A stretch of 32,000 bases of DNA from Candidatus Saccharimonadota bacterium (GCA_002952755.1 CP025011.1:1080001-1112000), one strand, 5' to 3'. Counted from the first letter of the stretch, positions 8,868 to 30,287 are shown. Numbers and translations are program-made. Notes: generated from the letters alone by a model not told the origin.

Positions 8868-9302
8868 ATGAACAGTAGTACAAGTCCGTGCGTCTTTTGC
8901 TCTATAGCTACACTCGAAGATCGAATTGTATATAGTGACGCTCTTCTATATGTACTCGTTCCTTCACACCCGGTCACGAGCGGGCATTTACTCGTTATCC
9001 CCGTTGCCCATCGATACACTTTCATTGATATCAATTTGGACGAACTCCGCCAGATGCAAACCATAATTGCTCATGTACTAGCTAGGAGTAAGAATCAAGG
9101 AGTAATCGGTTATAATTTACTATCTAATAATGGTGGTGCACTGGTTGACCAACATGTCGCCCATTTCCATCAGCATTGTTTTTTGAGGGACAGAAATGAG
9201 GGCAGCCCCTTTGAAAAATTACAAAATGGTCACAATATCACATCATCTTCATCGTTCAATATGACCGAGCACTGTCAAACCCTAAAAAGAAGATTTAATT
9301 AA
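8868..9302 (+). CDS. HIT (histidine triad) family nucleotide hydrolase/transferase, intact triad
   Basis: CVFC near the N-terminus, SGHLLVIPVAH, and the triad HVAHFHQHCF (HxHxHxx). 144 aa. Confidence 0.8.
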   Translation: MNSSTSPCVFCSIATLEDRIVYSDALLYVLVPSHPVTSGHLLVIPVAHRYTFIDINLDELRQMQTIIAHVLARSKNQGVIGYNLLSNNGGALVDQHVAHFHQHCFLRDRNEGSPFEKLQNGHNITSSSSFNMTEHCQTLKRRFN

Positions 9303-9317
9303 AATTGTAACTTGCGG

Positions 9318-10175
9318 CTATGCCGATTCTTGATCAATCATGCGACGTATTGCCTTTAACACTTCTCGCGTAATCGGTCCGCAACCATCAGATATAGTAA
9401 TATCATCTATTCGCGTGACAGGGTATGCAAGCAAGCTTGAGTTCGTTGCGAAACATTCGTCCATATCCTTAATATCAGATAGATGAATGAAGGTCTCGTT
9501 TACTGGAATATGCATGGCTTGTAGAGCCAATATCGCTTTTTGACGCATGATACCGCCGAGAACGTTATCAGTAGGCGCCGTCATTACAACACCAGATTTG
9601 ATGAAGAAGACATTATTAACGGCCGCCTCATAGACTGTGGGATCCTTTTCGGTGCCTATGAGCAATACGTCCATAATTCCCGTGTGCTTCAGTTTATTCC
9701 GCGCATAAAGGGAAGTTGTGTAATTAGTTGATTTTATCCTGGGCAATTGTCGTGGTGCTGAGAATGTCGCAAAAGCAACTCCTCGATCATATATGTCGGA
9801 GTCAATAGGTTTACAATAATTAATAATCAATATTAGTGAATTATCACGACCCGGAGATAAAGTATCTTCGCTAATACCCCCCGTAAGCAATACACGTACA
9901 TATATGTCCTGATCTGGATTCTTTTTGAGGGCATCTTCGAAAATATCCTCTAATTCTTTACGGGAGCACGGCATGGGAAGCTGAAATGCCTTTGCCGATT
10001 CAAAAAAACGATCCAAATGATCCTTGAGCCAAACAAAATTACGATTATGGCTGCGAACAAAATCAAAAACACCATAGCCTCTTAAAATGGTAAGATCAAA
10101 GACCGATAACGTTAGATCCTCGGCCTGAACCCAAGTCCCATTTATATAGTGGATATTTTCGTTATGTATTACCAT
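9318..10175 (-). CDS. PLP fold-type IV aminotransferase (branched-chain / D-amino-acid aminotransferase or ADC-lyase family)
   Basis: DLTILRGYGVFDF, YVRVLLTGG, a candidate catalytic Lys in PRIKSTNYTTSL, and EAAVNNVFFIKSG all match class IV aminotransferase landmarks. 285 aa. Confidence 0.75.
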   Translation of the reverse strand: MVIHNENIHYINGTWVQAEDLTLSVFDLTILRGYGVFDFVRSHNRNFVWLKDHLDRFFESAKAFQLPMPCSRKELEDIFEDALKKNPDQDIYVRVLLTGGISEDTLSPGRDNSLILIINYCKPIDSDIYDRGVAFATFSAPRQLPRIKSTNYTTSLYARNKLKHTGIMDVLLIGTEKDPTVYEAAVNNVFFIKSGVVMTAPTDNVLGGIMRQKAILALQAMHIPVNETFIHLSDIKDMDECFATNSSLLAYPVTRIDDITISDGCGPITREVLKAIRRMIDQESA

Positions 10176-10184
10176 ACGGATTAT

Positions 10185-10949
10185 TTAGATTTGCCGAGGG
10201 ACCTCTGTAAATATTGGTATGCTTGCCATAGGACGCCCACTATCATTCCATTGGCCTTGCAATCTTAGAACTTCTTCGTCACCCGTAACTATTGGTGTTT
10301 TTGGTGTAAAGTTGCCGTTTAAGTCATGGATTTGCATTCCAGGTATCCATAATTCAGGTGCGTTCCAGCCGATACGCCTAGTGAGATCTGGATTATGCGC
10401 GAGTAATGCCAGCAATTCAACACCAGGTGCCGTCGCACGATCTCGCACTAAAAAGGGTGCAGAGCCGTCGCCGACATAAGCATCAATATCTATTCTACTT
10501 GAGGTTATCTCCCCGGCTGGACGTGACAAAATCCTTTGCCCTTCATACAGATGACGCTCACTGTTCGCATGGAACGGAGTCCCTTTTGGAAGATTTTCAT
10601 CGATAGCCAGTAGCATCTTTCTAGAATCGCCATCTGGTACAAACGATGATTCTTGGTCGACCGTACCTTCGAAATTCCTCGCTACGATACTCCATAAGGC
10701 TTGCGCTGTCTTAGCGGTCGACGAGAGGTGGGGTGTAATTACTGTTACTGGCGTTTGACCCACCTCTTGATGATGCCTCTCCTCTAGAGCACGAATGGTG
10801 TCCGCATCAACATGTGTAGCCCTCTCTAAAAGACCCATGGGGACTAAACCGTCAGTAGCCCAAGCTCTAATATTCTCAAGTTGCTGGTCGACACTAATCG
10901 GCTCCCAATCATGAAGATCAGAAAAAGTTGCGTATTCCTCTATAGCCAT
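10185..10949 (-). CDS. Hypothetical protein (255 aa), possible N-terminal HTH
   Basis: The start at M47 of the track ORF (ATG 10947-10949) follows a TTGACT-17-GATAGT promoter by 7 nt. The longer start would overlap the divergent gene. LVPMGLLERATHVDADTIRALEER loosely resembles an XRE-type HTH. It contains no Cys and I recognise no enzyme motif. Confidence 0.5.
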   Translation of the reverse strand: MAIEEYATFSDLHDWEPISVDQQLENIRAWATDGLVPMGLLERATHVDADTIRALEERHHQEVGQTPVTVITPHLSSTAKTAQALWSIVARNFEGTVDQESSFVPDGDSRKMLLAIDENLPKGTPFHANSERHLYEGQRILSRPAGEITSSRIDIDAYVGDGSAPFLVRDRATAPGVELLALLAHNPDLTRRIGWNAPELWIPGMQIHDLNGNFTPKTPIVTGDEEVLRLQGQWNDSGRPMASIPIFTEVPRQI

Positions 10950-10956
10950 GCAGGCT

Positions 10957-10985
10957 ACTATCGCAAAGCGCTTTAGCTTAGTCAA
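10957..10985 (-). promoter_or_regulatory. Promoter of the minus-strand operon (TTGACT-17 nt-GATAGT)
   Basis: On the - strand, TTGACT is at 10985-10980, followed by a 17-nt spacer and GATAGT at 10962-10957. The ATG is 7 nt downstream, so the transcript looks leaderless. Confidence 0.5.
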
Positions 10986-11136
10986 GCAGTTACTTGTGGA
11001 TAAAGTGCCGGAAAGAGATGTAGTTGGACTGGCTTGTGCCGGGGTTGAAAGGTGTAATGTTTCTGTTCCGATTCGGCGTAGGAACATCCTTCATTTTGGA
11101 GTAGTATTGTCTTTAGCAAAAATTGAAGGCAGTAAT

Positions 11137-13383
11137 ATGACTGAATCTTTTCGCGATCAAATGCTTTCCGGGCAATCCGAAGTGTATGCGGATTTGCAAT
11201 CTATTTGGAATCAGAAACGAGGTCGGCCACCGATTGACACAGAACCCCAATTCTCTTTAGCGGTATGTTTGGCAAGTCCACAATTTGCCGTTGATGACTT
11301 TGCAGATAATATGGTTTCCCATCTAGCCAATACAGATCCAGAGACTATGTATCGTTGGTCTAAGGAATGGGGCCAAGCACGCATTGCACTCGCGCCCGGT
11401 CAAGATCGCTTTGTGATGGTGGATACTCAAGGAGAGGATTCAAAGAGGTATTCGCCCATCTTCACGCGGGCGAAATGTCGTCCCTCTGAAATGATGGCCG
11501 CTAAAAGGGAGTTGGTAGAAAATGCGATTACTATAGTTATCAACGATGACGAGCCGGTCAGTATGGAAGGGGCAGTTTTACAAGTTGAACGTATGGTCGA
11601 TGAAGCTGTATGGACAATATGCAATGGCATACAAGAAACAGAACAGGTACCTGGAGCGGCTGCATATAGTCGAGCGGTAGAATACGTGCAAAAAAGAGGT
11701 CTAAACATTGCATATGCAACAGCCAATACTATTCTAGATTTAAAATCGAGCCTCCCTGATGCCCCAGTTCGTCTCTACGGAGACATTCATAAGCAAAGCA
11801 CAGTGCCTCCCATTATTGGGATTATTCTATACGGTGGTTTGCCTGTTGGTGCGGAGATCAAGTACCCTAAAGCTCAATCAGATAAAGAGGCCATTCAATC
11901 AGACTGCCTAGAAAATCATTCTATTATCGAGCTCGCCGATTCAGAGGATATTGTCGCTAACCTATCGATTACTTTAGGTAAGCGATTACATGCAGGCCAC
12001 CTGTTTATGTTTGTAAAAGCATGGTCGGCATTGAGAGGCAGCGATCGTGCAAGCATGTGTGTTGAGTTTAATGATACCGGGCCGCAGATAGATGCCATGC
12101 TCGAAGTAGCAGCAAGCGAGACAGGAAAAAGTGTCGAGTTTGTAGCTGCCGCCATATCGGCAGGCTACTATGCATTAAAAGAGGTAGAAAGCTGGTATGG
12201 ACGGCGCAATAAAGATCCCGTTGGCATGTATTATGTTCCGCGCGCAGAACCACTACTGTCCATGAGCACTCAAGCCGAAGAAATGCACCGACTACTGCAA
12301 TCTACATTCCCTAATATACCTATGCGCACCTACACAAGTAGCACTACCGATTATTCGCACGTATTATCTCATTCTGATTATAGTTGGCGATCTACAGGGT
12401 TCGAAGTTATGGATGGCCACGTTCTAGCTAAGAGGGGAGGGACTACGGCTCTACTCGCTAGGATGGGTTTTCTTGACAGGGTAGCGAGGGAGAATCCCGA
12501 ATCAAAACTAGTATATATAGACTCTTCGCCAACTATTGCTACGGCTACGCGATTGTCTGAACGTATCATCGGGTATAAGCCAGAGATAGTAAAAGGGGCT
12601 GCACTGGGGTTTGATTTTGATATTCATTCTGGATCATCGCCACGGGACGATATTACCATTGCTCAATTTCTGGATTGGTATCATCAAGAGGTAAACGACG
12701 ATGAGGAGCAGCTCGCACTTGATCTAGAGTATATGATGACCTTTATGCCATTGGCATGTCCGAAGGATGATCCGGAAGCATTCTATAACTTTGCCAATCT
12801 TGAGGGTTTGAGGCGAGCAATTGCAGTCAGTCATAGCGAAAGACTAGGTTTTCTAAAAGATATTGCAACATGTGCTTTTCCAGTTCTCCCAAATGATGAA
12901 GGAATAGCCTTTCGGGAAGGAGCGCCAAAAGCTGAACGAGTGGCGATAAAGAAGATTCTGCGTTCGGCACTTGGACAGTTAAAAAACCAACATCCCCATG
13001 TTTATAAAGCAAGAGACCTTGATTTTGCATTCATCCCTCCGGGGTATCTTCATGAAGAGCTCACTTATTTAGCTAGTGGAAATCTTTTGGCTGGTGAATC
13101 AATAAGTATAGATGCCCCTACTGGTGTTGCCATTGACCCGACCTTGATTAAATTGTTACAAGCACAAGGCTACACATCCATAGATAAATTACAGCATGCC
13201 GCTCACTTGATGCTAGCCAGAGACATCTCCTTTCAGTTCCAGCTGACACCTTACCAACTACTGTTCAAAAATCTAGTTAGCATCGTGACACACGTATCGG
13301 CCTTAGGTACCGCATACCAACGGGCATACGAATTCTTGAAAAGGTCCAGGTTATGGGAGGTACCTAATCATCATGAAGTATAG
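11137..13383 (+). CDS. Atypical arginyl-tRNA synthetase-like class I aaRS homologue with about 270-aa unknown N-terminal region
   Basis: LGKRLHAGHLF aligns to the ArgRS HIGH region (AKEMHVGHLR in E. coli, from memory). VEFNDTGPQIDAML aligns to NHVGDWGTQFGML. LVYIDSSPTIATATRLSERIIGY aligns to the YVVDxxQxxHF...ARKAGY block. The start at ATG 11137 is preceded by GAAGG. Confidence 0.5.
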   Translation: MTESFRDQMLSGQSEVYADLQSIWNQKRGRPPIDTEPQFSLAVCLASPQFAVDDFADNMVSHLANTDPETMYRWSKEWGQARIALAPGQDRFVMVDTQGEDSKRYSPIFTRAKCRPSEMMAAKRELVENAITIVINDDEPVSMEGAVLQVERMVDEAVWTICNGIQETEQVPGAAAYSRAVEYVQKRGLNIAYATANTILDLKSSLPDAPVRLYGDIHKQSTVPPIIGIILYGGLPVGAEIKYPKAQSDKEAIQSDCLENHSIIELADSEDIVANLSITLGKRLHAGHLFMFVKAWSALRGSDRASMCVEFNDTGPQIDAMLEVAASETGKSVEFVAAAISAGYYALKEVESWYGRRNKDPVGMYYVPRAEPLLSMSTQAEEMHRLLQSTFPNIPMRTYTSSTTDYSHVLSHSDYSWRSTGFEVMDGHVLAKRGGTTALLARMGFLDRVARENPESKLVYIDSSPTIATATRLSERIIGYKPEIVKGAALGFDFDIHSGSSPRDDITIAQFLDWYHQEVNDDEEQLALDLEYMMTFMPLACPKDDPEAFYNFANLEGLRRAIAVSHSERLGFLKDIATCAFPVLPNDEGIAFREGAPKAERVAIKKILRSALGQLKNQHPHVYKARDLDFAFIPPGYLHEELTYLASGNLLAGESISIDAPTGVAIDPTLIKLLQAQGYTSIDKLQHAAHLMLARDISFQFQLTPYQLLFKNLVSIVTHVSALGTAYQRAYEFLKRSRLWEVPNHHEV

Positions 13384-14773
13384 AAATATTGTGCTCGTTG
13401 GCGGTTCGGGCTTCTGGAGTGACCAGAATCATATAATGAGCATTCTTGAAGTTGGCCCACGCAATAGGGCGCGAATTGGTGCGATTATAGACCCTGTTAA
13501 TCCGGCAATCGTAACCAAGCATATAAATTTGCAGCAATTGCTCAATAGGGACCATCCCCAGTGGTTAGATCCTCGTAGGTATACAAATATGAAGGAGCTC
13601 TTTGGACACCTAGAGCAAACGCCCGACCTGGTTATAGTAGCTTGCAACCCGGAGGCCCATTTGGAATATGCCAGCTTCTGCATTTCACAGGGTATAAACG
13701 TTTTGATAGATAAGCCGATCAACGTAGTTGCAAATGCGTCGAGCGACCTGCTTAGCGCTCGACAGATATACAAAGATTTCTCCAAACTCCTGGCATTGCA
13801 GCAGCGAGTTCAAGAACCACACCTTGCGGTAACACTCCTTCGCAGAAGAACACTGAAGCCTTTCCGACATATCATTAGGGAAGTTGCAGACTGCTACCAA
13901 CGAACAAGGCAGGGCATCACTCAAATTAACATTATCGTCAATGGTGGCATTCATAAATTTCCATCCGAATTCTTTTCTACACCTGGTGCCCACGGCTATC
14001 TTATGGGCGTTGGCTCCTTATCCCATTCGGCCTATCATTATATTGATGTTGTCACATGGCTACTCCAAAGCGCGCCCGGGGATGTCCGCTATTTACGCGT
14101 AAGTCTTGCCTGCGTCAAAAGGATTGCCGACTACATTAAGACCGGTGGATATAGTGCGCTACAGCAGCTTTTAGATCTGCCGGATACTCTTATTCAATCA
14201 CCCGAACCAATACCGCAAACTATTTTAGATGCTGAGCTAGATTCGAGTTTTACAATTGAAATGTTAGATAGTAACCAAGCAGTTATTGGACATATCAATT
14301 TTGTTTTTTGTCATACTACCTTTACTTCTAGAACAAGGACTATCGAAGTGGGAGACGATCATGCAAATTACCCAAACGGTGGCCGTATGTCACACATATA
14401 TCTCGATGTCCAGCAAGGATCTTTACAAAGTTGGCAGTTAGAAAAAAACGACATTGTTTTTCAGGGTAATACTATCAGGTTAAGTGGCAGGGTTCACCCC
14501 TACTACGGTCGTCCGCAAATATATTCTAAAGTATATGAGGCCGCCTATGAAAATACCGAAAGGCCCTTGAGCATACTCCTTGAAGATGTTTTATCAATGA
14601 CAGATAACACCCACCCAACAGTCAATTCAAATCAATACATTAAAGATATAAAATCAGAAACACTGAATATGCGACTCTTCAGCACATTTTATGAGCTACT
14701 AGCCATGAATAAGGTGGCCGGGCTCCAGAAAACAATCAGTCTCGATGTAGGTTCTTTATTGACAGAACACTAA
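13373..14773 (+). CDS. Gfo/Idh/MocA-like NAD(P)-dependent oxidoreductase (long form, 466 aa)
   Basis: N-terminal Rossmann segment NIVLVGGSGFWSDQNH, then PDLVIVACNPEAHLEYASFCISQGINVLIDKP (family motif EKP, here DKP), then GVGSLSHSAYHYIDVVTWLL. Its start overlaps the stop of the upstream gene by 11 nt. Confidence 0.6.
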   Translation: MKYRNIVLVGGSGFWSDQNHIMSILEVGPRNRARIGAIIDPVNPAIVTKHINLQQLLNRDHPQWLDPRRYTNMKELFGHLEQTPDLVIVACNPEAHLEYASFCISQGINVLIDKPINVVANASSDLLSARQIYKDFSKLLALQQRVQEPHLAVTLLRRRTLKPFRHIIREVADCYQRTRQGITQINIIVNGGIHKFPSEFFSTPGAHGYLMGVGSLSHSAYHYIDVVTWLLQSAPGDVRYLRVSLACVKRIADYIKTGGYSALQQLLDLPDTLIQSPEPIPQTILDAELDSSFTIEMLDSNQAVIGHINFVFCHTTFTSRTRTIEVGDDHANYPNGGRMSHIYLDVQQGSLQSWQLEKNDIVFQGNTIRLSGRVHPYYGRPQIYSKVYEAAYENTERPLSILLEDVLSMTDNTHPTVNSNQYIKDIKSETLNMRLFSTFYELLAMNKVAGLQKTISLDVGSLLTEH

Positions 14774-15654: not shown

Positions 15655-17598
15655 ATGAAACCACACACTATAAATCGTAGTGCGGCACTGCGCGCGCAGC
15701 GGCGCAATAAAGAAGATGCCGAACGCATTGTCAGCCACTATACCAGCACCAAAGCACGGCCGCAGGCCACTAACGTGCCCTATTCGCATGACCTACTAAA
15801 GCTTACTTTCTTAGGTGGCCTGGACGGGGTCGGCGAAAAGAATATGGCTATCTTGGAATGGCAAAACGACGCTCTCGTGCTCGATTGCGGCAACAATCTA
15901 GGCGTTGATCTGCCAGGCGTTAACTACGAAATATGCGATCCCAGTTATCTGCAAAGCATCCGACATAAAGTTCGTGCGTATGTTATATCGCACGGCCATC
16001 TCGACCATATGGGAGGCTTACGACATATCGTGCCGCAAGTGCCTGCACCGATATACGGCTCGCCATTCACGCTTGGTGTAGTAGCGAAATCTTTTGCCGA
16101 CGCTGCATCGGAAACCGGGCAGGACTTTGCACCCAAACTCATACCAATGCAGATCGACAATCATGAACGGCTCAAAATAGGCAGTTTTTTCGTAGAGCTT
16201 ATTCGCGTCACCCATTCAATTCCCGAGCCAACTGCTGTTTGTATCGACACGCCCGTCGGCCGAGTAATTGCCACCGGCGACTTTCGGCTCGACCCAGAAC
16301 CACTCGACAACCTACCAACTGATACAAACCGCCTGGCTGAACTGGGAAGTCAAGGGGTGTTGCTTCTGCTCAGCGAAAGCAGCTACGCGAACAGTGAAGG
16401 ACGCACTCCACCCGAGCATACTCTGCAGCAAAGCTTCTACGATGTCATAGAGCAAAGCCCGGGCCGCATCTTCGTCACCGTCTTTTCCAGTAATATTAAC
16501 CGCATCCAGATGGTTATCAACGCTGCGGTGAGGGCAGGACGCACAGTGGCTCTCGACGGACGGAGCATGCTGGGGTTTAGCGAAATCGCCGTTCGGCAGG
16601 GTATTCTCAAAATTCCCAAAGGCATGGTCCTACCTATGCAGCAGACAGCTTCGGTTGCCGATGATAAACTGCTTATCATGTCGACTGGCGGACAAGGGGA
16701 GCCAGGCGCAGCCTTGCAACGTATGAGCGAGGGCGAGCACAAATACATCAAACTAAAGAGCGGTGACACGGTGGTCATTAGCTCTACACCGATTCCAGGC
16801 AACGAAATACGCTATGATCAACTGAGCAATAACCTGGCCAGGAAGGGTGTGCACCTATTCCGTCATCCGACGCATGAGCTGGATGGCTGTGGGCCGCTGC
16901 ACGTCTCCGGACATGCTAGGCGCGAAGAAATGCGCGAGATGTTGCAACTCACCAAGCCACGATTCTTTATACCGGTCCACGCTGGCGCACTTAGGCGTCG
17001 TTACCATGCCGACATCGCCCTACAGGAAGGCTGGTCACGTTCCAGCATACTTCTTCCCAATAATGGTGAGAGCGTCCTACTGAGTGCCGATACTATGAAG
17101 ATAGGCCCCACAGTGTCGTATGGTAGCTTATTGGTTGACTCCAACGGCAACCTGGTGAGCAATGTCGTCGTCAAAGATCGACTACTATTAGCGAACGAGG
17201 GCATTATAGCCGTCGTACTCACCGTCGACAAAGCGACAGGCCGTCTGCTGACCAGTCCCGATATCATCAGCCGCGGATTCATTAATATGCGCGACAACGA
17301 AGCGCTTATGAATGACTTCCGATCGGAACTGCGCCGGGCAACCGAACAGCGCTTCAAGCGTATCGACCTCGATCGCTTTAAAGCCGAACTTCGTGATCAT
17401 ATGACTCAGTTCTTGTTTGACAGCACAGGGCGTAGCCCTCTAGTTATTCCAGTGGTCAATCTTGTCGGCAGCACCAAATCTGTCAAAACTTCAGGTAAAA
17501 GCAAAGCAGCAGGCGTAACCGAACAGCTGGCCGAAAAAGAGCACGCACGCTTCCAGCAGATGCGTGCCCGTTTACTTGGTCAGGACCAGATAAACTAG
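15655..17598 (+). CDS. rnj: Ribonuclease J (metallo-beta-lactamase / beta-CASP family)
   Basis: LTFLGGLDGVGEKNM...LDCG, the HxHxDH motif in ISHGHLDHMGG, beta-CASP region landmarks, and HVSGHA near the C-terminal part. AAGGAA RBS. There are N- and C-terminal extensions. Confidence 0.85.
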   Translation: MKPHTINRSAALRAQRRNKEDAERIVSHYTSTKARPQATNVPYSHDLLKLTFLGGLDGVGEKNMAILEWQNDALVLDCGNNLGVDLPGVNYEICDPSYLQSIRHKVRAYVISHGHLDHMGGLRHIVPQVPAPIYGSPFTLGVVAKSFADAASETGQDFAPKLIPMQIDNHERLKIGSFFVELIRVTHSIPEPTAVCIDTPVGRVIATGDFRLDPEPLDNLPTDTNRLAELGSQGVLLLLSESSYANSEGRTPPEHTLQQSFYDVIEQSPGRIFVTVFSSNINRIQMVINAAVRAGRTVALDGRSMLGFSEIAVRQGILKIPKGMVLPMQQTASVADDKLLIMSTGGQGEPGAALQRMSEGEHKYIKLKSGDTVVISSTPIPGNEIRYDQLSNNLARKGVHLFRHPTHELDGCGPLHVSGHARREEMREMLQLTKPRFFIPVHAGALRRRYHADIALQEGWSRSSILLPNNGESVLLSADTMKIGPTVSYGSLLVDSNGNLVSNVVVKDRLLLANEGIIAVVLTVDKATGRLLTSPDIISRGFINMRDNEALMNDFRSELRRATEQRFKRIDLDRFKAELRDHMTQFLFDSTGRSPLVIPVVNLVGSTKSVKTSGKSKAAGVTEQLAEKEHARFQQMRARLLGQDQIN

Positions 17599-18270: not shown

Positions 18271-19905
18271 CTATAGATTTGTTCTGAGCAAATAAGTAGT
18301 CACCGGGCCACTATCGGTTATACGCTCATCAACTTGTGTGTAGTAGGTATCGACAAATTTTTGCAAATCGGTATTGCTGTCGCGGGTATGAAAATCTATG
18401 TAATAGATAACTCCCATGCGCTTAAGTGTCTCATAATAGGGATGATCATCGACCACGGGAGGATCAAGGATGCTGTAACAGTTGAGATGGATGTGCCAAC
18501 AAGCAAAAAATGAGTCGCTAAAATCGTCCGATATTACTTTCGAGCCAGCGGGAATAACGCTCTCTAGGGCAAGCGAAGTAGTGTAATGATACTTGTCCAG
18601 GTACTGATATCGCACAATATTTTGTATGGCGGCGGTCATCGTAATAGCGACGGCGATTGCTCCGCATACAAAAATTTGCCACGTGCCAAGCAGTTTGCGT
18701 TGCTGCAACCTCGACAGCCACAAGGCGCCGCCCGCGACTGTCAGGAACAGACCACCCCATAGATATCGCCCTTCAAGCAGCACTAATGAGTAACCCGCAA
18801 TCATAATGCCGAGTAGATACGCAAATAACACATACTCCTGTTTACGCTCTTTCTTTTGCTCCAGCGCGCCACACAACAGGCCAAATAGACCAAGTAGCCC
18901 CACTGGCCCAAACGCCATCCATGAACTACTTGCCTCGGCTAGATTATGGCCAATGACGCGCTGCCAGAAAAACGTAAAGTCCTTCCCCGAATCCAAAGGC
19001 GACCACCTAGGGAAAAGACGTGTCAGTTGGGTAGGGTCTTCCCAAATGCTCATGGCCGAACTATTCGGCGGAGCGAGCGGCCCCATATGCGTCATTGCAC
19101 CGAGGCCTAAACCGGCGGGACCGTAGGTGACGTGATCGTAAGCGCCAGCGTTATTAATCGTTGGCGTGTGGTATTTGCAGGAAATAGCAATGATAAACGG
19201 CGCTACCAGCAGGGTAAACATTGCGAGCATGGGCAAATACCTCTTGAGCGTTATCTTCCATTTTCGCTCGTCCTTATACCACCACTGCCACAGGCCAATC
19301 GACCCGATAACGCCTATAAATAAGAAAAAGCCAAACCCTTTCGCAAAGAACATACAGGCGCCGAGTGCGCCCACTATCAGACCCATCTTAAGCGTTGGGC
19401 GAGACAAAAAAGTATTCAATGTGAGGCCAAAAAGAAGCGTAGCAAGCGCTATGAGGACATCAGGAGTAACCGGGCCAACCGTAGACCATTGCAGTAGCAT
19501 ACTCCCCAGCGCGAGCGATATAAGAAGCAGGATAAACCGGCTCACATTGCGTATAGACAAATAGGCATACAATGTCACTAATATTCCCAAGCTTCCTAGT
19601 ACTGCAATAATTTTGGCAGCCGAAATCATGTTGGCATGCAGCCACACAGCGGGCACGAGCAGCCACGATAATAATGGACCCCAGTAGCCATTGAGCGCGT
19701 GGCTAACGTCCCCATGAGCGTATTTGTAAGCGATAGTGAAATAAGAGGCCGCATCCGGGTTGAGTTGATACTGATACCAACTGAGTGACAGCATGATACC
19801 TACGGTAAGAAACACCAGACAAAGCAGTATAAATAATGCGTGTCGCCTAATGACTTCTACCATTTGACGTATCCAGTTTGTTGCAAACCACATATGTGTT
19901 TTCAT
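18271..19905 (-). CDS. GT-C fold glycosyltransferase (family 39/83, ArnT/PMT-like)
   Basis: 544 aa with at least 10 hydrophobic helices. The first loop carries NPDAASYFTIAYKY, resembling the acidic D-x-x-x-Y loop of polyprenyl-phosphate-sugar dependent GT-C enzymes. The soluble C-terminal domain is about 90 aa. Confidence 0.6.
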   Translation of the reverse strand: MKTHMWFATNWIRQMVEVIRRHALFILLCLVFLTVGIMLSLSWYQYQLNPDAASYFTIAYKYAHGDVSHALNGYWGPLLSWLLVPAVWLHANMISAAKIIAVLGSLGILVTLYAYLSIRNVSRFILLLISLALGSMLLQWSTVGPVTPDVLIALATLLFGLTLNTFLSRPTLKMGLIVGALGACMFFAKGFGFFLFIGVIGSIGLWQWWYKDERKWKITLKRYLPMLAMFTLLVAPFIIAISCKYHTPTINNAGAYDHVTYGPAGLGLGAMTHMGPLAPPNSSAMSIWEDPTQLTRLFPRWSPLDSGKDFTFFWQRVIGHNLAEASSSWMAFGPVGLLGLFGLLCGALEQKKERKQEYVLFAYLLGIMIAGYSLVLLEGRYLWGGLFLTVAGGALWLSRLQQRKLLGTWQIFVCGAIAVAITMTAAIQNIVRYQYLDKYHYTTSLALESVIPAGSKVISDDFSDSFFACWHIHLNCYSILDPPVVDDHPYYETLKRMGVIYYIDFHTRDSNTDLQKFVDTYYTQVDERITDSGPVTTYLLRTNL

Positions 19906-20003: not shown

Positions 20004-20402
20004 ATGAAAGTAGGGGACCGCTTAGCGTTGGAGGCGTCTGTATTTGGACGCTATATTGTCGGCGAAGTACCCTCGGCTACGGCAACCGAGCTCTACGTTC
20101 GCGTTGTGCGCGGCCACGAAGAGACACTGGCAGCCAACGATAGACGCCTGCTATCGCTTATCCTCAGACACCCATGGACGGTTAGCTGGATTGATGCAGG
20201 GCTAGCTATAGTCAATCCGCATAGCAAGGTCCGCCACCGCCTCCATACTATGTTTGCCATTTTGGAATCAATGCCCGAATATGCAGATTATTTTTTGCCC
20301 CGGCAGCGATCGCCGTTCTATATCGTGATCATCGCATTTGCCACCATAAGAGGTGGTTTTAAGGCTGTGTTGGGCGGCTTGTTTGTAAAGATCCTATCAT
20401 GA
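20004..20402 (+). CDS. Hypothetical small protein with C-terminal hydrophobic segment, translationally coupled to the GMC oxidoreductase
   Basis: GAGGGGAAG RBS. Its stop overlaps the next start (ATGA at 20399-20402). No motif recognised. Confidence 0.55.
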   Translation: MKVGDRLALEASVFGRYIVGEVPSATATELYVRVVRGHEETLAANDRRLLSLILRHPWTVSWIDAGLAIVNPHSKVRHRLHTMFAILESMPEYADYFLPRQRSPFYIVIIAFATIRGGFKAVLGGLFVKILS

Positions 20403-22012
20403 AGGTATTCGACTACCTGATTGTGGGCTCTGGATGCTCAGGAGCGATGGCCGCCCAAACGCTGGTAGACGCCGGCAGAGAAGTGGCCATGCTGGACGCC
20501 GGCAACGAAAACACGCTCATGTCCCCTGTACCTCAGGGAGATTTTCTGACATTGCGCAAAACCGATCCAGAACAATATCGCTATTTTTTAGGAGAAGATG
20601 CCGAAGGTGTGACGCAGGGCGACATTGGCAAAGGAGCCCAGATAACTCCTGTGCGTAAGCATATGACTACGTATGTCGACACACACTTGTCCGTACAATC
20701 GGACACTTTCTCGCCAGTGGAAAGCCTCGGCTACGGCGGCCTCGGGATAGGCTGGGGACTACAGTGCTGGGAGTACTCAATACCTGAAATGCGTGCCGCA
20801 GGCTTAGAACCACAGCGGATGAAACAAGCCTACGAAACGATCAGCACACGCATAGGCATCAGTGGCACCAAAGATAGTGCGGCCAAATATACGCTTGGGA
20901 GTCTCAAAACATATCAACCATCGCCTACCATGGATCGTAATCATCAGGCAATTTATCAAAAATATGCAGCCCGTAAACACTCCTTTGATAGCAAGGGTCT
21001 TTTTCTGGGTCGCACACCTCTGGCCCTTATCACCAAAGATACCGATGGCCGAAAGGGCTACGCTTACCGCGATATGGACTTTTATACCGATAACGATCAG
21101 AGCGCCTGGCGGCCATGGATGACCATTAATGCACTAAAGCCGCGGTCCAATTTTACCTATATCGGTGGCTACCTGGTGATTCGCTTCATCGAAAAAAAAC
21201 AGCATGTCGAGGTGATCTGCTTACAAATCGGCACGAATAAAACGGCTAGCTTTCGCTGCAAGACACTGATACTCGCAACAGGCACGCTTGGTAGCGCCCG
21301 CATTGCACTGCGCTCGTTAGAGCAGGCCGGCAAACAACTGCCTCTGCTATGCAACCCTTACACGTACGTCCCATGTCTCCAGCCAACGATGGTCGGTAAA
21401 GCAGCCGAGCCAAACAAGCTTGGTTTTGCGCAGTTAAGCCTATTTCTAGATGAGCAGCGTAACAACTTTGATGTCTCAGTCTCCTCGCTCTACACTTATC
21501 AGTCACTGATGCTTTTTAGGATCATCAAACAAGCACCATTCAATCTACGTGATGCCCGGCTTTTATTACAATATGTTTTGTCTGGTATCGTCATAATGGG
21601 CGTGCACCATCCCGACGAGAGAAGCGATCAGAAATATATTTCCCTGGTCGATGATTTGTCATCGCCGACTCAGGACGCACTTAAAATCCATTATGTATTA
21701 GAAGATGATAAAAAACGCGAATTCGCCCGCCGTGAAAAAAAGATTATTGCCGGGGTGCGTAAAACCGGCCTCTATGCGATAAAACGCATTAACCCTGGCT
21801 ATGGATCAAGCATCCATTACGCCGGTACGCTGCCCTTTAGCAAAAAAGACGAGGCTTTTACCCTCCGTAATGACGGGAAACTCCACGGCACGCAGCATGT
21901 ATATGTTGCCGACAGCTCTGGTTTTACCTACTTACCAGCACGTGGCCTCACTTTTTCGCTTTTAGCTAATGCACACACTGTTGCGGAGGGAATACTCCAT
22001 AATGCCTTCTAA
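20399..22012 (+). CDS. GMC-family FAD-dependent oxidoreductase
   Basis: N-terminal FAD fold DYLIVGSGCSGAMAAQTLVDAGREVAMLDAG. The C-terminal segment VYVADSSGFTYLPARGLTFSLLANAHTVAE resembles the GMC C-terminal signature. Confidence 0.7.
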   Translation: MKVFDYLIVGSGCSGAMAAQTLVDAGREVAMLDAGNENTLMSPVPQGDFLTLRKTDPEQYRYFLGEDAEGVTQGDIGKGAQITPVRKHMTTYVDTHLSVQSDTFSPVESLGYGGLGIGWGLQCWEYSIPEMRAAGLEPQRMKQAYETISTRIGISGTKDSAAKYTLGSLKTYQPSPTMDRNHQAIYQKYAARKHSFDSKGLFLGRTPLALITKDTDGRKGYAYRDMDFYTDNDQSAWRPWMTINALKPRSNFTYIGGYLVIRFIEKKQHVEVICLQIGTNKTASFRCKTLILATGTLGSARIALRSLEQAGKQLPLLCNPYTYVPCLQPTMVGKAAEPNKLGFAQLSLFLDEQRNNFDVSVSSLYTYQSLMLFRIIKQAPFNLRDARLLLQYVLSGIVIMGVHHPDERSDQKYISLVDDLSSPTQDALKIHYVLEDDKKREFARREKKIIAGVRKTGLYAIKRINPGYGSSIHYAGTLPFSKKDEAFTLRNDGKLHGTQHVYVADSSGFTYLPARGLTFSLLANAHTVAEGILHNAF

Positions 22013-27200: not shown

Positions 27201-28031
27201 TTATGCAGCGCCTTTGTGGGTAAACAACACGCGCAGTATACCGCCCATCACTAGTACACAGCCGGTTAGCAGAACAGGCACAAAACCAGTGCGCGTTCGA
27301 TCATCTAAAAAGAGCAAACCTAAAATCGTAGGTACAAGCGTCTGAGCTGCGACCATCGCTGCGTTAATGATCGTGGCCGAACCTCGTTGCAAGGCCATCG
27401 TAAAAAGCAGGATGCCGATCAGCGCATACACCGCCAGAGCGACAGCAGTTGGAGTGTATACTACATGCCAATAGGGGCGGGGGATACTAAGTACCCGGCC
27501 ACAAATCGACGTGCCGCCGAACCCTAAGCCACTGAGCAAAGCCAGCCCAATCGTAGCTTTGCTGCTCCGTATGCGCACTAGAAAGAGCGCGGCAAGCGCT
27601 AAGACGATTGGGCCGCCTACGACCACCCAAGTCATGACGACCGTCAGACTTGGACCCGGCGAAGGCTGCGCAGCTGCTCCCAAGAGTGTTAGGCCAGTGA
27701 GCACCAAGCCCACCGCCCAGTAGGTTTGACTACGCATACGATGTTTAAGCACAAACCGGTCAATGAGCGCCGTCGCCACCACACTCGACGCGATTACGGA
27801 TTGCGCCAGAAAAAGTGGCAACGTTCGCACGGCGAATAACTCGCTGGCGCCACCGATGAGATCCAACACAATACTAAAAAAATAGAGCTCATTTTGTATC
27901 AAGCGCACTAATAACCCGAGACTAAGTGAGGGGGCCTGTTTTTCACGGCTGGCGGTCATTTTCTGCAAAATCGTTGCCACACTGTTGCACAGCGCGCAAA
28001 GAAAAGCTGCGGCTAAAGCAGGATAAAACAT
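27201..28031 (-). CDS. DMT-superfamily (EamA/NIPA-like) membrane transporter
   Basis: About nine or ten hydrophobic helices. I chose the start at M13 of the track ORF (MFYPALAAAF...); the first 12 codons look non-native. The family call is by topology and general resemblance. Confidence 0.5.
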   Translation of the reverse strand: MFYPALAAAFLCALCNSVATILQKMTASREKQAPSLSLGLLVRLIQNELYFFSIVLDLIGGASELFAVRTLPLFLAQSVIASSVVATALIDRFVLKHRMRSQTYWAVGLVLTGLTLLGAAAQPSPGPSLTVVMTWVVVGGPIVLALAALFLVRIRSSKATIGLALLSGLGFGGTSICGRVLSIPRPYWHVVYTPTAVALAVYALIGILLFTMALQRGSATIINAAMVAAQTLVPTILGLLFLDDRTRTGFVPVLLTGCVLVMGGILRVLFTHKGAA

Positions 28032-28111
28032 CTCTTTGTAGTGTAACAGAGAAGCACAAGCGCACATGCTTCAAAAAGCACCCAAAGGATCCCGCATGCT
28101 ACACTAAGCAC

Positions 28112-29143
28112 ATGCTTCGCACGCTTACTGCCGCCTTTCTTTTAGCTGTGATGCCCAGCAGCAGTAACTATGTATTACATTCCTATGATTTCGGCAACGG
28201 GTCTGGGACAGCAAGTGGTACAACCTACAAAATGAACGGCACGGTTGGACGACCGTCCGGTGCGCTCAGTAGCGCGACATATATGCTGCCGGCTGGCATT
28301 AAGGCGTCCACCTCTGTATCAGCACCGGCCGCGCCGACATTCATAAACGCGAGCAACAACTACGACCGTTTACACCTTACACTCGCCACTAGCTCACTCC
28401 CCAGTGATACGAAATATTTGATAGCCATTAGTAGCGATGGCTTTGCCACAGCTAAGTACGTACAAACGGACAACACTATTGGCAGCGTAGTCAATATCAA
28501 CAATTACCAAGTGTATGCGGCGTGGGGCGGTGCAAGTGGTTTTTCTATACTCGGCTTAGCCAGCAACACTACCTATAGCGTCAAAGTTGCCGCGCTACAG
28601 GGAAGTAACACCGGCAGTGGCTTTGGACCAATTGCCAGCGCCGCCACCGTGTCGCCAACCGTCACGTTGGCGCTTTCCACCTCGCTCACTAGTACACCAC
28701 CATTCACCACTACTTTTAGCAGCTTGGCCCCAGGCACGCCAATAAACGGGAATGCCACACTTATTGCTGCCATCACCACGAACGCTATAAATGGAGGAGC
28801 GTTGGCGATATATGATCAATTTGGCGGACTCAAGAGTACGGCCGCCAATTACACATTGGCCTCGGCCAGCGCCAACTTATCTGTGGCGCAAAATGGTTAC
28901 GGGGCGCAAGTGACCACGGCTACGCAAACCAGTGGTGGGCCAATAGTTTCGGCAAGCCCCTATAATGGCTCAGGCAATACTGTTGGTGCGCTCACCACCA
29001 GTCAACAAACGCTCGCATCATTTAGTAATCCTATTACCAATGGAAATATTACGACGGCATTAATTGCTAAAACAGATAGTTCCGTGCCATCAGCGGGCGA
29101 TTATGCCGACACCGTAACGCTCTCTCTGTCGCCCCTCTTTTAG
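28112..29143 (+). CDS. Secreted surface protein: signal peptide, FN3-like module, C-terminal beta-rich domain (paralogue of 29229-30287)
   Basis: The start at M63 of the track ORF (MLRTLTAAFLLAVMP...) lies 6 nt after TACACT. LGLASNTTYSVKVAAL looks like the end of an FN3 module. TTNAINGG...GLKSTAANYTLAS and the terminal GDYADTVTLSLSPLF are shared with the next protein. Confidence 0.55.
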   Translation: MLRTLTAAFLLAVMPSSSNYVLHSYDFGNGSGTASGTTYKMNGTVGRPSGALSSATYMLPAGIKASTSVSAPAAPTFINASNNYDRLHLTLATSSLPSDTKYLIAISSDGFATAKYVQTDNTIGSVVNINNYQVYAAWGGASGFSILGLASNTTYSVKVAALQGSNTGSGFGPIASAATVSPTVTLALSTSLTSTPPFTTTFSSLAPGTPINGNATLIAAITTNAINGGALAIYDQFGGLKSTAANYTLASASANLSVAQNGYGAQVTTATQTSGGPIVSASPYNGSGNTVGALTTSQQTLASFSNPITNGNITTALIAKTDSSVPSAGDYADTVTLSLSPLF

Positions 29144-29228
29144 TTCAGTTTTATTTAATATGGCACTTGCTTTTGTTCGTAAAAGCCTCCATACTACGCG
29201 CATACATAAGCAACATCAGGGGGATTAG

Positions 29229-30287
29229 ATGTTACGCACAATTAGACAACAAAATACGATAAAAAAGGTGAGCTTTTACTCCCTTTCTGCACTGCTTGCC
29301 TTCTCGGCTGTTGCTTTGGTGATTCAGCCTGAAGCGGCACATGCGGTAACGCTGAATAAAGTGCTCGTCCGTTTCGACCGCTTGCAGATTTCGCAAGGCA
29401 CCACTGGCACTGTTTGTGCGCAGCCTACCTCAACTGCAACCGAAGCAAGTGTGCAAGTTGTCTTCCCAACAGGTTACACGCTCGGGGCAGCTGGCACATT
29501 CACAGTAAACACAACCAACTTGAACTGGCCAACGGGCGGGACAGCCTGGACAGGAATCGGCACCGCGAATAACGTCACTTCGCAAACTGTTACATTCCCC
29601 AGCGGCGATCTTGCCAGCACGAGCACGCTTTACTGTTTTAACTGGACAAACACGGCTGCAGTAACCGTTAAGTCGAGCGCTACCAGCAGTAATGCCGGTA
29701 CGGTTACAACCCAAACCAGCGTACCAGCGCCCATAGATACTGGCTCCTATAGCACCGTGAGCTTGGCCAGCGACCAGATTGGCGTCTCGGCTTCTGTACC
29801 CCAGGCATTCACTTTTGCCCTTAGCAGTACAACCGACACGCTTGGTGCACTTTCAACGTCGAGCGTCGTCAGCAGCAGCTCTGCACCGACTATAACGGTT
29901 AATACCAACGCCAAGAATGGCTGGACGGCTTGGGGGCAGGATGCCAACACTGGCTTAAAATCGGTAAGCGCTGGCAACTACACCATCGCCTCAAAAACCC
30001 CAGGCACTAATAGCACGCTCGTTGCAGGGACCGAATTCGCTAACCTTGGTGTAACCACTTCACAAACCGGCGGCACCGGCACGCTGGCTGCCGACGCTGC
30101 ATTCCTTGGCGGCGGCACCGGCAAAGGTGGCGGCCTTGACACGACACTCCGCACCATCGCCAGCTCAAACGGCACTGCCAATAACGCTGTTTTGACGCTT
30201 ACCAATAACGCTGTCGTCAGCGCCACCACTCCCGCAGCCACCGATTATAGTGATACCATCACCATGGTCGGCGCGGCATTGTTTTAG
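29229..30287 (+). CDS. Secreted surface protein, paralogous C-terminal domain (WxL-like?)
   Basis: GGGGGA RBS. The signal peptide ends AAHA/V. NTNAKNGWTAW...GLKSVSAGNYTIAS and the terminal TDYSDTITMVGAALF parallel the previous protein. Confidence 0.55.
   Translation: MLRTIRQQNTIKKVSFYSLSALLAFSAVALVIQPEAAHAVTLNKVLVRFDRLQISQGTTGTVCAQPTSTATEASVQVVFPTGYTLGAAGTFTVNTTNLNWPTGGTAWTGIGTANNVTSQTVTFPSGDLASTSTLYCFNWTNTAAVTVKSSATSSNAGTVTTQTSVPAPIDTGSYSTVSLASDQIGVSASVPQAFTFALSSTTDTLGALSTSSVVSSSSAPTITVNTNAKNGWTAWGQDANTGLKSVSAGNYTIASKTPGTNSTLVAGTEFANLGVTTSQTGGTGTLAADAAFLGGGTGKGGGLDTTLRTIASSNGTANNAVLTLTNNAVVSATTPAATDYSDTITMVGAALF

Follow-up and report, generated by a model that had tools for sequence, protein, structure and literature searches.

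The aminoacyl-tRNA synthetase (aaRS) paralogues known to be engaged in non-translational chemistry are few and well studied (MshC, GluQRS, cyclodipeptide synthases, PoxA, and HisZ), and each of them has revealed new biochemistry. Class I aaRS paralogues have been recruited as small-molecule ligases (PMC2922099). The HIT enzyme MccH cleaves aminoacyl-adenylate analogues, and the aaRS-like AgnA acts in agrocin 84 synthesis (PMC8323819). Here we analyze a gene of a Candidatus Saccharimonadota bacterium, located at positions 11137..13383 on the plus strand of a 32,000-nucleotide (nt) stretch of DNA (GCA_002952755.1 CP025011.1:1080001-1112000). This whole stretch is referred to as the window. The 748-amino-acid (aa) product, which we call the ligase, has a catalytic core descended from arginyl-tRNA synthetase (ArgRS), and its gene has a conserved companion encoding a HIT-family protein. 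An ArgRS-derived paralogue family has, to our knowledge, not been described, and when the literature was searched for ArgRS paralogues associated with HIT proteins, nothing relevant was found. With moderate confidence, we read the protein as an ArgRS-derived, adenylate-forming, non-translational ligase, which probably works with the HIT nucleotide hydrolase/transferase in a variable small-molecule pathway. We are highly confident of its ArgRS ancestry and non-canonical status, taken alone.

An earlier note on this DNA had aligned four blocks of the protein to ArgRS by eye and had proposed two readings, a neofunctionalised paralogue and an argS that has diverged to an extreme degree, with a search of family models as a check. 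In that search, no aaRS model of Pfam or NCBIfam matched the window protein even at E ≤ 1, and the Pfam aaRS models did not match any of 58 family members at the same threshold. A phmmer search against PDB sequences returned only noise, and BLASTP against E. coli ArgRS gave no significant match. A word-indexed search of 5.8 billion proteins found the ligase itself and one relative with 31% identity. An exhaustive HMMER search of 1.84 billion representative proteins, seeded with these two sequences, yielded a family of 113 representative clusters, of which 96 had E values of 1e-10 or lower. Most members have a length of 670-810 aa, and in a 92-sequence alignment they share 15-33% identity with the window protein. 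The clusters that were looked up contained one or two members each, which carried the name 'hypothetical protein' or no name; 'hypothetical protein' is also the NCBI label of both named examples. The named sources are the window organism (Saccharibacteria-like) and a Komeilibacteria metagenome-assembled genome, which carries locus L005. The family is thus rare and previously unannotated, is invisible to Pfam and NCBIfam, has no source name beyond 'hypothetical protein', and has so far been found in genomes of the Candidate Phyla Radiation (CPR)/Patescibacteria type.

The relation to ArgRS was revealed by comparing a profile of the 92-sequence alignment with the single E. coli K-12 ArgRS sequence using hhalign. 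The two aligned with a probability of 84% (E 7.5e-6) over 227 colinear columns, which pair ligase residues 278-515 with ArgRS residues 122-397. All four blocks recognized by eye lie within this one alignment, together with two more (ALKEVESWY/ELADLEGFY and VLAKRGG/IQKKDGG; ligase/ArgRS). The ArgRS strings quoted in the earlier note are indeed present in the E. coli K-12 protein (AKEMHVGHLR, 125-134; VGDWGTQFGML, 159-169; LYYIDSRQHQH...RKAGY, 334-357; VKLADLLDE, 387-395). As controls, 25 reversed or shuffled ArgRS sequences were used; their scores did not exceed 23.2, as compared with 50.8 for real ArgRS. Other E. coli class I aaRSs were aligned with the profile over 63 (CysRS), 59 (MetRS), and 31 (GluRS) columns, confined to the surroundings of the HIGH motif. 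The difference between these lengths and 227 columns, together with the position of ArgRS at the head of the structural match lists (see below), indicates that it is ArgRS in particular to which the catalytic core is homologous. The similarity is very remote: ligase and ArgRS share approximately 20% identity, an hhalign comparison with a two-sequence profile reached a probability of just 1.6%, and a HMMER profile search of the PDB placed Thermus thermophilus ArgRS (E 0.074) below designed helical repeats.

An AlphaFold (AF2) model of the ligase, calculated from the 92-sequence alignment, had a predicted local distance difference test (pLDDT) score of 86.6 and a predicted template modeling (pTM) score of 0.87. 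The deep alignment was required, since a two-sequence alignment gave an unusable model (pLDDT 33). When the model was compared with the PDB by Foldseek, eight of the top 11 matches were ArgRS structures (1f7u, 1bs2, 5yym, 4q2t, 6ao8, 4r3z, 4oby, and 2zue; E 4.8e-7 to 3.7e-5), followed by CysRS, GluRS, MetRS, TyrRS, and MshC. In BFVD, giant-virus ArgRSs were on top (E 1.8e-7). All significant Foldseek matches were class I aaRSs or MshC. The TM-scores were low (0.26-0.36), which we ascribe to the extra domains and the different overall arrangement of the ligase. In the model, strand 271-279 is followed by helix 286-298, which bears the HAGH sequence, in a Rossmann-type arrangement. The ArgRS-type class I catalytic core (Rossmann/HUP), which is supported by hhalign and its controls, corresponds to residues 266-515 (11932..12681, plus strand). 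These approximately 250 central residues descend from the catalytic domain of ArgRS, and their homology to it is genuine, although very remote.

ATP chemistry is probably kept in this core, because the K-x-x-H-x-G-H signature is essentially invariant. The signature K282-R-L-H285-A-G287-H288 (11980..12000, plus strand) aligns with E. coli K126 and H129-G131-H132 and includes the ArgRS-type upstream Lys. K282 and H288 are found in 92 of the 92 family members, and H285 and G287 in 91. A Lys three residues upstream of HxGH is the proposed stand-in for the missing KMSK lysine in ArgRSs without that motif. Many ArgRSs are devoid of KMSK (PMC3956977). In the ligase, the KMSKS position (ArgRS 'FKTRAG') is occupied by the loop I496-H-S498-G499-S-S-P502 (12622..12642, plus strand; family I-A-S-G-T-x-G), which has no Lys or Arg in the family and in the window copy alike. 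S498, G499, and G502 are conserved in 85, 84, and 82 of 92 members, respectively. The GD that follows the HIGH helix in ArgRS is absent, as had been noticed before. The equivalent of the ArgRS GDWGTQ block is N312-D-T-G315-P-Q317 (12070..12087, plus strand), which reads NDTGPR in the family (N in 90/92, G in 87/92, and R in 90/92); Q at position 317, which matches ArgRS Q165, is found in no member but the window copy. The block Y460-I-D462-S (12514..12525, plus strand) corresponds to ArgRS Y336-I-D338-S, with D462 (88/92) aligned to D338. Furthermore, Y354 is invariant in the 92-sequence alignment, and N312, G315, R317, R357, G421, G434, D462, G487, S498, and G499 are near-invariant.

In contrast to the ATP site, the arginine pocket is remodelled. 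In E. coli ArgRS, the side chain of the bound arginine is contacted by D118, Y313, and D317, and its main chain by A121, N123, H132, and Q341 (PMC3956977). According to the hhalign mapping, in which single-residue assignments are somewhat uncertain at this evolutionary distance, N123 is replaced by T279, Y313 by A438, D317 by R442, and Q341 by P465. The family consensus at these four columns (T, A, R/L, and P/S) is not ArgRS-like either. D118 lies outside the alignment, and ungapped extension places it on A274 (V/I/A in the family). Among the arginine contacts, only H132, which is part of HIGH, is retained. The same mapping bears out two substitutions read from the blocks by eye: the Arg after HxGH is a Phe (R134 corresponds to F290; Phe or Leu in the family), and the Q of the second block is a P (the Q341/P465 pair).

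The window copy also departs from its own family. In addition to R317 to Q (12085-12087; R in 90/92), it has Leu in place of G440 (12577-12579) and, within 12625-12645, His in place of A497 and Pro in place of G502, the latter with a one-residue insertion that 89 of 92 members lack. These unusual residues are not a sequencing error, because the identical protein sequence was assembled independently in two further read sets.

The residue numbers used here depend on the start codon. The longest open frame around the gene spans 10948-13383 (811 aa), whereas in the database the gene is called from a GTG at 10996 (795 aa). The best-supported start is at 11137 (748 aa plus stop), because the alignment with the closest relative, P0002, begins at Met1 of the latter, because a GAAGG Shine-Dalgarno-like site is located 7 nt upstream (11125-11129), and because any start further upstream would run into the divergently oriented neighbour gene. 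The HIGH motif then occupies residues 285-288. The earlier note had placed it at about 330, a position that fits the 795-aa database call and not the 11137 start, but its estimate of an N-terminal region of approximately 270 aa was accurate, as the first Rossmann beta-strand begins at residue 271.

This N-terminal region (residues 1-265; 11137..11931, plus strand) forms a family-specific alpha/beta domain in the AF2 model, in which it is predicted with confidence. It had been described as unlike the usual N-terminal domain of ArgRS, and this view was upheld. No Pfam match was found for it in the 58 members and no match in a profile search of the PDB. For the Add1 domain (Arg_tRNA_synt_N), which binds the tRNA D-loop, there was no Pfam match and no hhalign alignment of the ligase to ArgRS residues 1-121. 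A Prim-Pol identity of the domain was rejected, since the weak Pfam match (E 0.0063) was below the cut-off and occurred in one of the 58 members. In one clade, the N-domain (approximately 240 aa) and the core with the C-terminal part (approximately 475 aa) are encoded by separate adjacent genes. This was seen in two independent loci (324-1040 and 1042-2469 in L010; 324-1052 and 1055-1873 in L024). The split genes have their own start codons, the distance between the stop and the next ATG is 1-2 nt, and in L010 the HIT gene follows. The family search had returned approximately nine clusters of N-only proteins and as many of core-only proteins, which is consistent with a split clade. The split genes therefore indicate that the N-domain is an autonomous subunit. 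Thus, the Add1 domain has been replaced by a new 265-aa domain that is able to exist as a separate subunit.

The C-terminal region (residues 516-748; 12682..13380, plus strand) is mostly helical according to AF2 secondary structure and pLDDT, with a disordered insert at about 619-660 that is specific to the window copy. It showed no sequence similarity to ArgRS residues 398-577, and no DALR match was obtained by hhalign or in the Pfam scan of the 58 members. Except for the G678-Y679 motif, conservation within the family is lowest in this region, and the alignment of most relatives ends at about position 600. At the level of sequence, the recognizable tRNA-recognition domains have been lost, with no detectable DALR signature. 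The net charge of the domains was considered as a proxy for RNA binding and was discarded as uninformative, since E. coli ArgRS itself is acidic.

To compare gene contexts, we collected 17 independent ligase loci and clustered their open reading frames (ORFs); a related-locus search was run with 14 closer sequences. A partner-type HIT gene lies within 2.5 kb of the ligase gene in 13 of the 17 loci, which are all the loci with enough flanking DNA. In the four loci without a visible HIT gene (L008, L016, L022, and L024), the contigs end at or beside the ligase gene. The HIT gene overlaps the ligase stop codon by 4-10 nt in L009, L010, and L020, and it is on the opposite strand, 33-42 bp from the ligase gene, in L004 and L006. 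The H-F-H-Q-H-C-F motif (HxHxH) is conserved in the partner HIT proteins of the 13 loci, as are the subfamily motifs GYNLxxNNG...GQ and a C-terminal SPF, which are missing from an ordinary HinT-like gene in L009. The latter locus contains two HIT genes (1721-2122 and 10052-10483): one is HinT-like and located beside an ABC transporter gene, and the other is of the partner type, overlaps the ligase stop codon, and is followed by a NUDIX gene.

In the window, the HIT-family nucleotide hydrolase/transferase (144 aa) is encoded at 8868..9302 on the plus strand. It matched the Pfam HIT model above the cut-off (E 3.4e-11) and HIT proteins in the PDB with E values down to 4.7e-11. The gene directly downstream of the ligase gene encodes a 466-aa NAD(P) oxidoreductase of the GFO/IDH/MocA family (13373..14773, plus strand; PF01408, E 1.4e-7). 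Its ATG at 13373 precedes the ligase stop codon at 13381-13383, giving an 11-nt overlap, and GGGAGG is present upstream of the ATG. The overlap behind the coupling to an oxidoreductase noted earlier is therefore real in the window, but the coupling is not a conserved feature of the family: homologues adjoin the ligase gene only in L007 and L011, which makes three loci with the window. The conserved companion of the ligase family is the HIT protein. The oxidoreductase is unusually long, the Pfam NAD-binding domain covers only residues 5-119, and the L007 homologue consists of two ORFs (10204-10878 and 10960-11646), possibly due to a split or a frameshift.

On the other side of the ligase gene, a divergently oriented gene (10185..10949, minus strand; ORF open to 11087) encodes a 254-aa protein without a Pfam or NCBIfam match. 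Its sole homologue (273 aa) is found in L007 at the same divergent position beside the ligase gene, and it is possibly part of the ligase unit. Ten nt downstream of it, a class IV (BCAT/DAAT-type) aminotransferase is encoded (9318..10175, minus strand; Aminotran_4, E 5e-47), the best PDB matches of which are branched-chain aminotransferases. An aminotransferase gene was not found beside other family members in the loci compared.

Other genes near the ligase gene vary between loci. An APH-like kinase is encoded in eight loci, a His_Phos_1 phosphatase in four, and a GFO/IDH/MocA dehydrogenase (window, L007, and L011), a radical S-adenosylmethionine (SAM) enzyme with NrdG2, viperin, and MoaA as closest models, a 6PF2K-like P-loop kinase, and an ABC exporter (L004, L009, and L015) in three loci each. 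Single cases are the NUDIX gene of L009, two short-chain dehydrogenases/reductases (SDRs) with a methyltransferase in L021, and an M20 deacylase in L020. The APH-like kinase, radical SAM, His_Phos_1, and 6PF2K-like kinase genes occur together in Komeilibacteria-type loci (L005, 12064-16732; L014; and L015), and this gene set is nucleotide-flavoured, unlike that of the window. Directly upstream of the ligase locus in L005 (4518-8927), there are three large ORFs (444, 694, and 277 aa), two of which appear by eye to be ParB/methyltransferase-like and UvrD-type helicase-like, the third being without a label; this neighbourhood may be mobile or of defence type.

Based on these data, the following function is proposed for the ligase. 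It would activate a carboxylate, probably of an amino acid other than arginine, in an ATP-dependent manner as acyl-AMP, and the acyl group would then be passed to a non-tRNA acceptor, as in MshC. The HIT enzyme would act on an AMP-linked species, for which the adenylate, a product conjugated to AMP, and a by-product are candidates, in a step of processing, proofreading, or self-protection. The variable neighbours would tailor the acceptor or the product. In the window, these would be the GFO/IDH/MocA dehydrogenase and possibly the aminotransferase; elsewhere, APH-like kinases, nucleotide-type radical SAM enzymes, histidine phosphatases, NUDIX proteins, and ABC exporters may have this role. The mixture of kinases, dehydrogenases, phosphatases, and radical SAM enzymes suggests a small molecule of the sugar, cyclitol, or nucleoside type.

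Several points weigh against this proposal. The activity of all family members is predicted from sequence and model. ArgRS needs tRNA for arginine activation (PMC3956977), and a requirement for RNA could have been inherited. The C-terminal region, modelled as helical, and Foldseek alignments with ArgRS of more than 500 columns would also be compatible with a degenerate tRNA-binding module. As the KMSKS-equivalent loop has no Lys or Arg, the efficiency of adenylation presumably rests on K282 and R317/R357, and the departures of the window copy from its family may mean altered specificity, or altered or weaker activity, in this lineage. The aminotransferase may simply be a housekeeping IlvE-type (BCAT) enzyme. 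Finally, the accessory genes vary by locus, and a single pathway cannot be reconstructed from them.

Among other explanations, the one that survives best, although we consider it unlikely, is a tRNA-directed enzyme, which would attach a non-standard amino acid to tRNA (for aminoacylation of cell wall or lipids, or for a tRNA-dependent peptide pathway) or, like GluQRS, aminoacylate a modified nucleoside of a tRNA. The ArgRS ancestry is in line with this; in enzymes of the ArgRS type, the active site accommodates the acceptor end of the tRNA, and activation depends on tRNA (PMC3956977). The mostly helical C-terminal region, with Foldseek alignments to ArgRS-tRNA complexes exceeding 500 columns, points in the same direction, and GluQRS is a precedent for an aaRS paralogue acting on tRNA (PMC3542578). 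However, the Add1 domain is absent, a DALR signature is not detectable, and the C-terminal region is the part that the family conserves least. Moreover, tRNA genes near the ligase gene showed no consistent linkage across loci, and the partners conserved alongside the ligase, a HIT enzyme and kinases of the small-molecule type, are not tRNA-dependent transferases.

A nucleotide-signal or conflict module is a less probable explanation. Here the ligase would make a dinucleoside polyphosphate or an AMP conjugate, and the HIT enzyme would degrade it as a signal eraser or immunity enzyme. Canonical aaRSs make diadenosine tetraphosphate (Ap4A) from the aminoacyl-adenylate. The linkage of the HIT gene in 13 of the 13 loci with enough flanking DNA fits this idea, and the motif of the partner HIT proteins ends with HxHxHxx(P/V)R, which we take to resemble Fhit-type ApnA hydrolases. 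It is also in agreement with the NUDIX gene directly after the HIT gene in L009, the weak TCAD9 matches of neighbour kinases, and the resemblance of the radical SAM neighbours to viperin and NrdG. LysRS-Ap4A-HINT1 signalling is a precedent (PMC6789022, PMC10148737). On the other hand, only the HIT protein had a PADLOC match, which was to a generic HIT model (ThsC); the ligase, the GFO protein, the kinase, and the proteins without a family assignment had none. Relatives in phages, plasmids, and viral contigs were looked for and not found, an obvious effector or toxin gene is not conserved, and neighbours such as the dehydrogenase, SDRs, methyltransferase, and aminotransferase give a metabolic rather than a defensive impression.

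Doubtful, and less probable again, is the idea that the ligase esterifies the ribose of a free nucleoside or nucleotide, yielding an aminoacyl-nucleoside or an aminoacyl-adenylate mimic that is puromycin-like or similar to an aaRS inhibitor. The ancestral chemistry, esterification of the ribose of the terminal adenosine, would then have been redirected; the sugar would be tailored by the dehydrogenase, aminotransferase, radical SAM enzyme, or kinases, and the dedicated HIT enzyme would provide self-protection together with a kinase or exporter where present. If true, these ultra-small episymbiotic bacteria of the CPR would have a pathway for a natural product or for warfare that is built on a new enzyme class.

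That the protein, or at least the window copy, is a catalytically dead ArgRS-derived scaffold or pseudoenzyme is very improbable. The window copy has neither R317 nor G502 of the family and carries an insertion in the KMSKS-equivalent loop, which is without Lys or Arg throughout the family. Nevertheless, K282, H285, G287, H288, Y354, R357, and D462 show no or hardly any variation in about 90 sequences of 15-30% identity, which indicates a maintained active site; the window copy keeps all of these residues, and its Q317 is ArgRS's own residue. Hardly credible is that the gene encodes the organism's extremely divergent housekeeping ArgRS: ArgRS is the best structural and profile match, and CPR proteins are often very divergent, but every ArgRS model failed, the side-chain and main-chain contacts to arginine are replaced, Add1 and DALR domains are not detectable, 113 clusters in 1.84 billion representatives are incompatible with a universal enzyme, one clade has two genes, and the linkage is to HIT and not to translation genes. 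Between the two options of the earlier note, the evidence (rarity, HIT linkage, replaced Arg contacts, and split genes) thus favours the neofunctionalised paralogue.

The remainder of the window contains genes of other kinds. RNase J is encoded at 15655-17598 (63-70% identity to Saccharibacteria and Saccharimonadales proteins), and a GMC-oxidoreductase-like gene is located at 20399-22012. Cell-envelope genes are represented by a weak Wzy_C match, LytR_cpsA_psr, an epimerase, and a glycosyltransferase; the latter two labels were taken from the annotation table of contig L001, which is identical. Long ORFs of 447, 544, 405, and 352 aa (1120-2463, 18271-19905, and 27926-30287) are without a Pfam match. 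No T-box, riboswitch, or other Rfam element was found near the ligase gene.

The reading of the ligase as a non-translational, HIT-coupled enzyme has several implications. Ligase and HIT protein are a concrete two-protein system for expression and assay. As CPR/Patescibacteria have a minimal metabolism, a dedicated ligase/HIT pathway could bear on the interplay of these episymbionts with hosts or competitors. Further, the family extends the known evolutionary plasticity of ArgRS, which is among the few synthetases needing tRNA for amino-acid activation.

Compared with ArgRS (tRNA-synt_1d, Arg_tRNA_synt_N, and DALR_1 in Pfam), the ligase has in common the Rossmann core with colinear blocks over approximately 230 columns and the Lys three residues before HxGH; it also has no canonical KMSKS, as in many ArgRSs (PMC3956977). 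It differs from ArgRS in its identity of approximately 20%, the replaced arginine contacts, the unrelated 265-aa N-domain, and the undetectable DALR, and the family differs in being rare, patchy, HIT-linked, and sometimes split. MshC, the cysteine:GlcN-Ins ligase of mycothiol synthesis, uses a class I aaRS core as an ATP-dependent amino-acid ligase on a small molecule, like the proposed ligase, among whose Foldseek matches it is found (8hfn, E 3.6e-3). However, MshC is derived from CysRS, is recognized by CysRS models, and has neither an extra N-domain nor a HIT partner. GluQRS (YadB), a GluRS paralogue without an anticodon-binding domain, has lost canonical anticodon recognition, for which the ligase likewise shows no detectable signature, and it aminoacylates a non-standard acceptor. 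In contrast to the ligase, it is a truncation detected by GluRS models and acts on queuosine of tRNA-Asp, whereas the proteins of the ligase family exceed ArgRS in length and contain novel domains.

With respect to gene organization, microcin C-like clusters (MccH) and the agrocin 84 system (AgnA) likewise contain an adenylating or aaRS-like enzyme with a HIT protein, exporters, and tailoring enzymes nearby (PMC8323819), and ABC exporters are present beside the ligase-HIT pair in L004, L009, and L015. The differences are that MccB belongs to the E1/ThiF type and has a ribosomal peptide as its substrate, with no precursor peptide gene being evident in the ligase loci, and that AgnA is not ArgRS-like; the partner HIT protein is likened to MccH by enzyme class and not by sequence. 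The puromycin and A201A pathways combine a dehydrogenase (Pur10), an aminotransferase (Pur4), a NUDIX protein (Pur7), a phosphatase (Pur3), and a ligase (Pur6) (PMC11641026). The window, with its GFO/IDH/MocA protein, aminotransferase, HIT protein, and ligase, and other loci, with NUDIX, phosphatase, and kinase genes, are similar to them in enzyme logic only, as Pur6 is not aaRS-like and the dehydrogenase and aminotransferase are not conserved in the ligase family. Thus, aaRS paralogues acting as non-translational ligases were already known; new here are the ArgRS origin, the separable N-domain, and the HIT partner.

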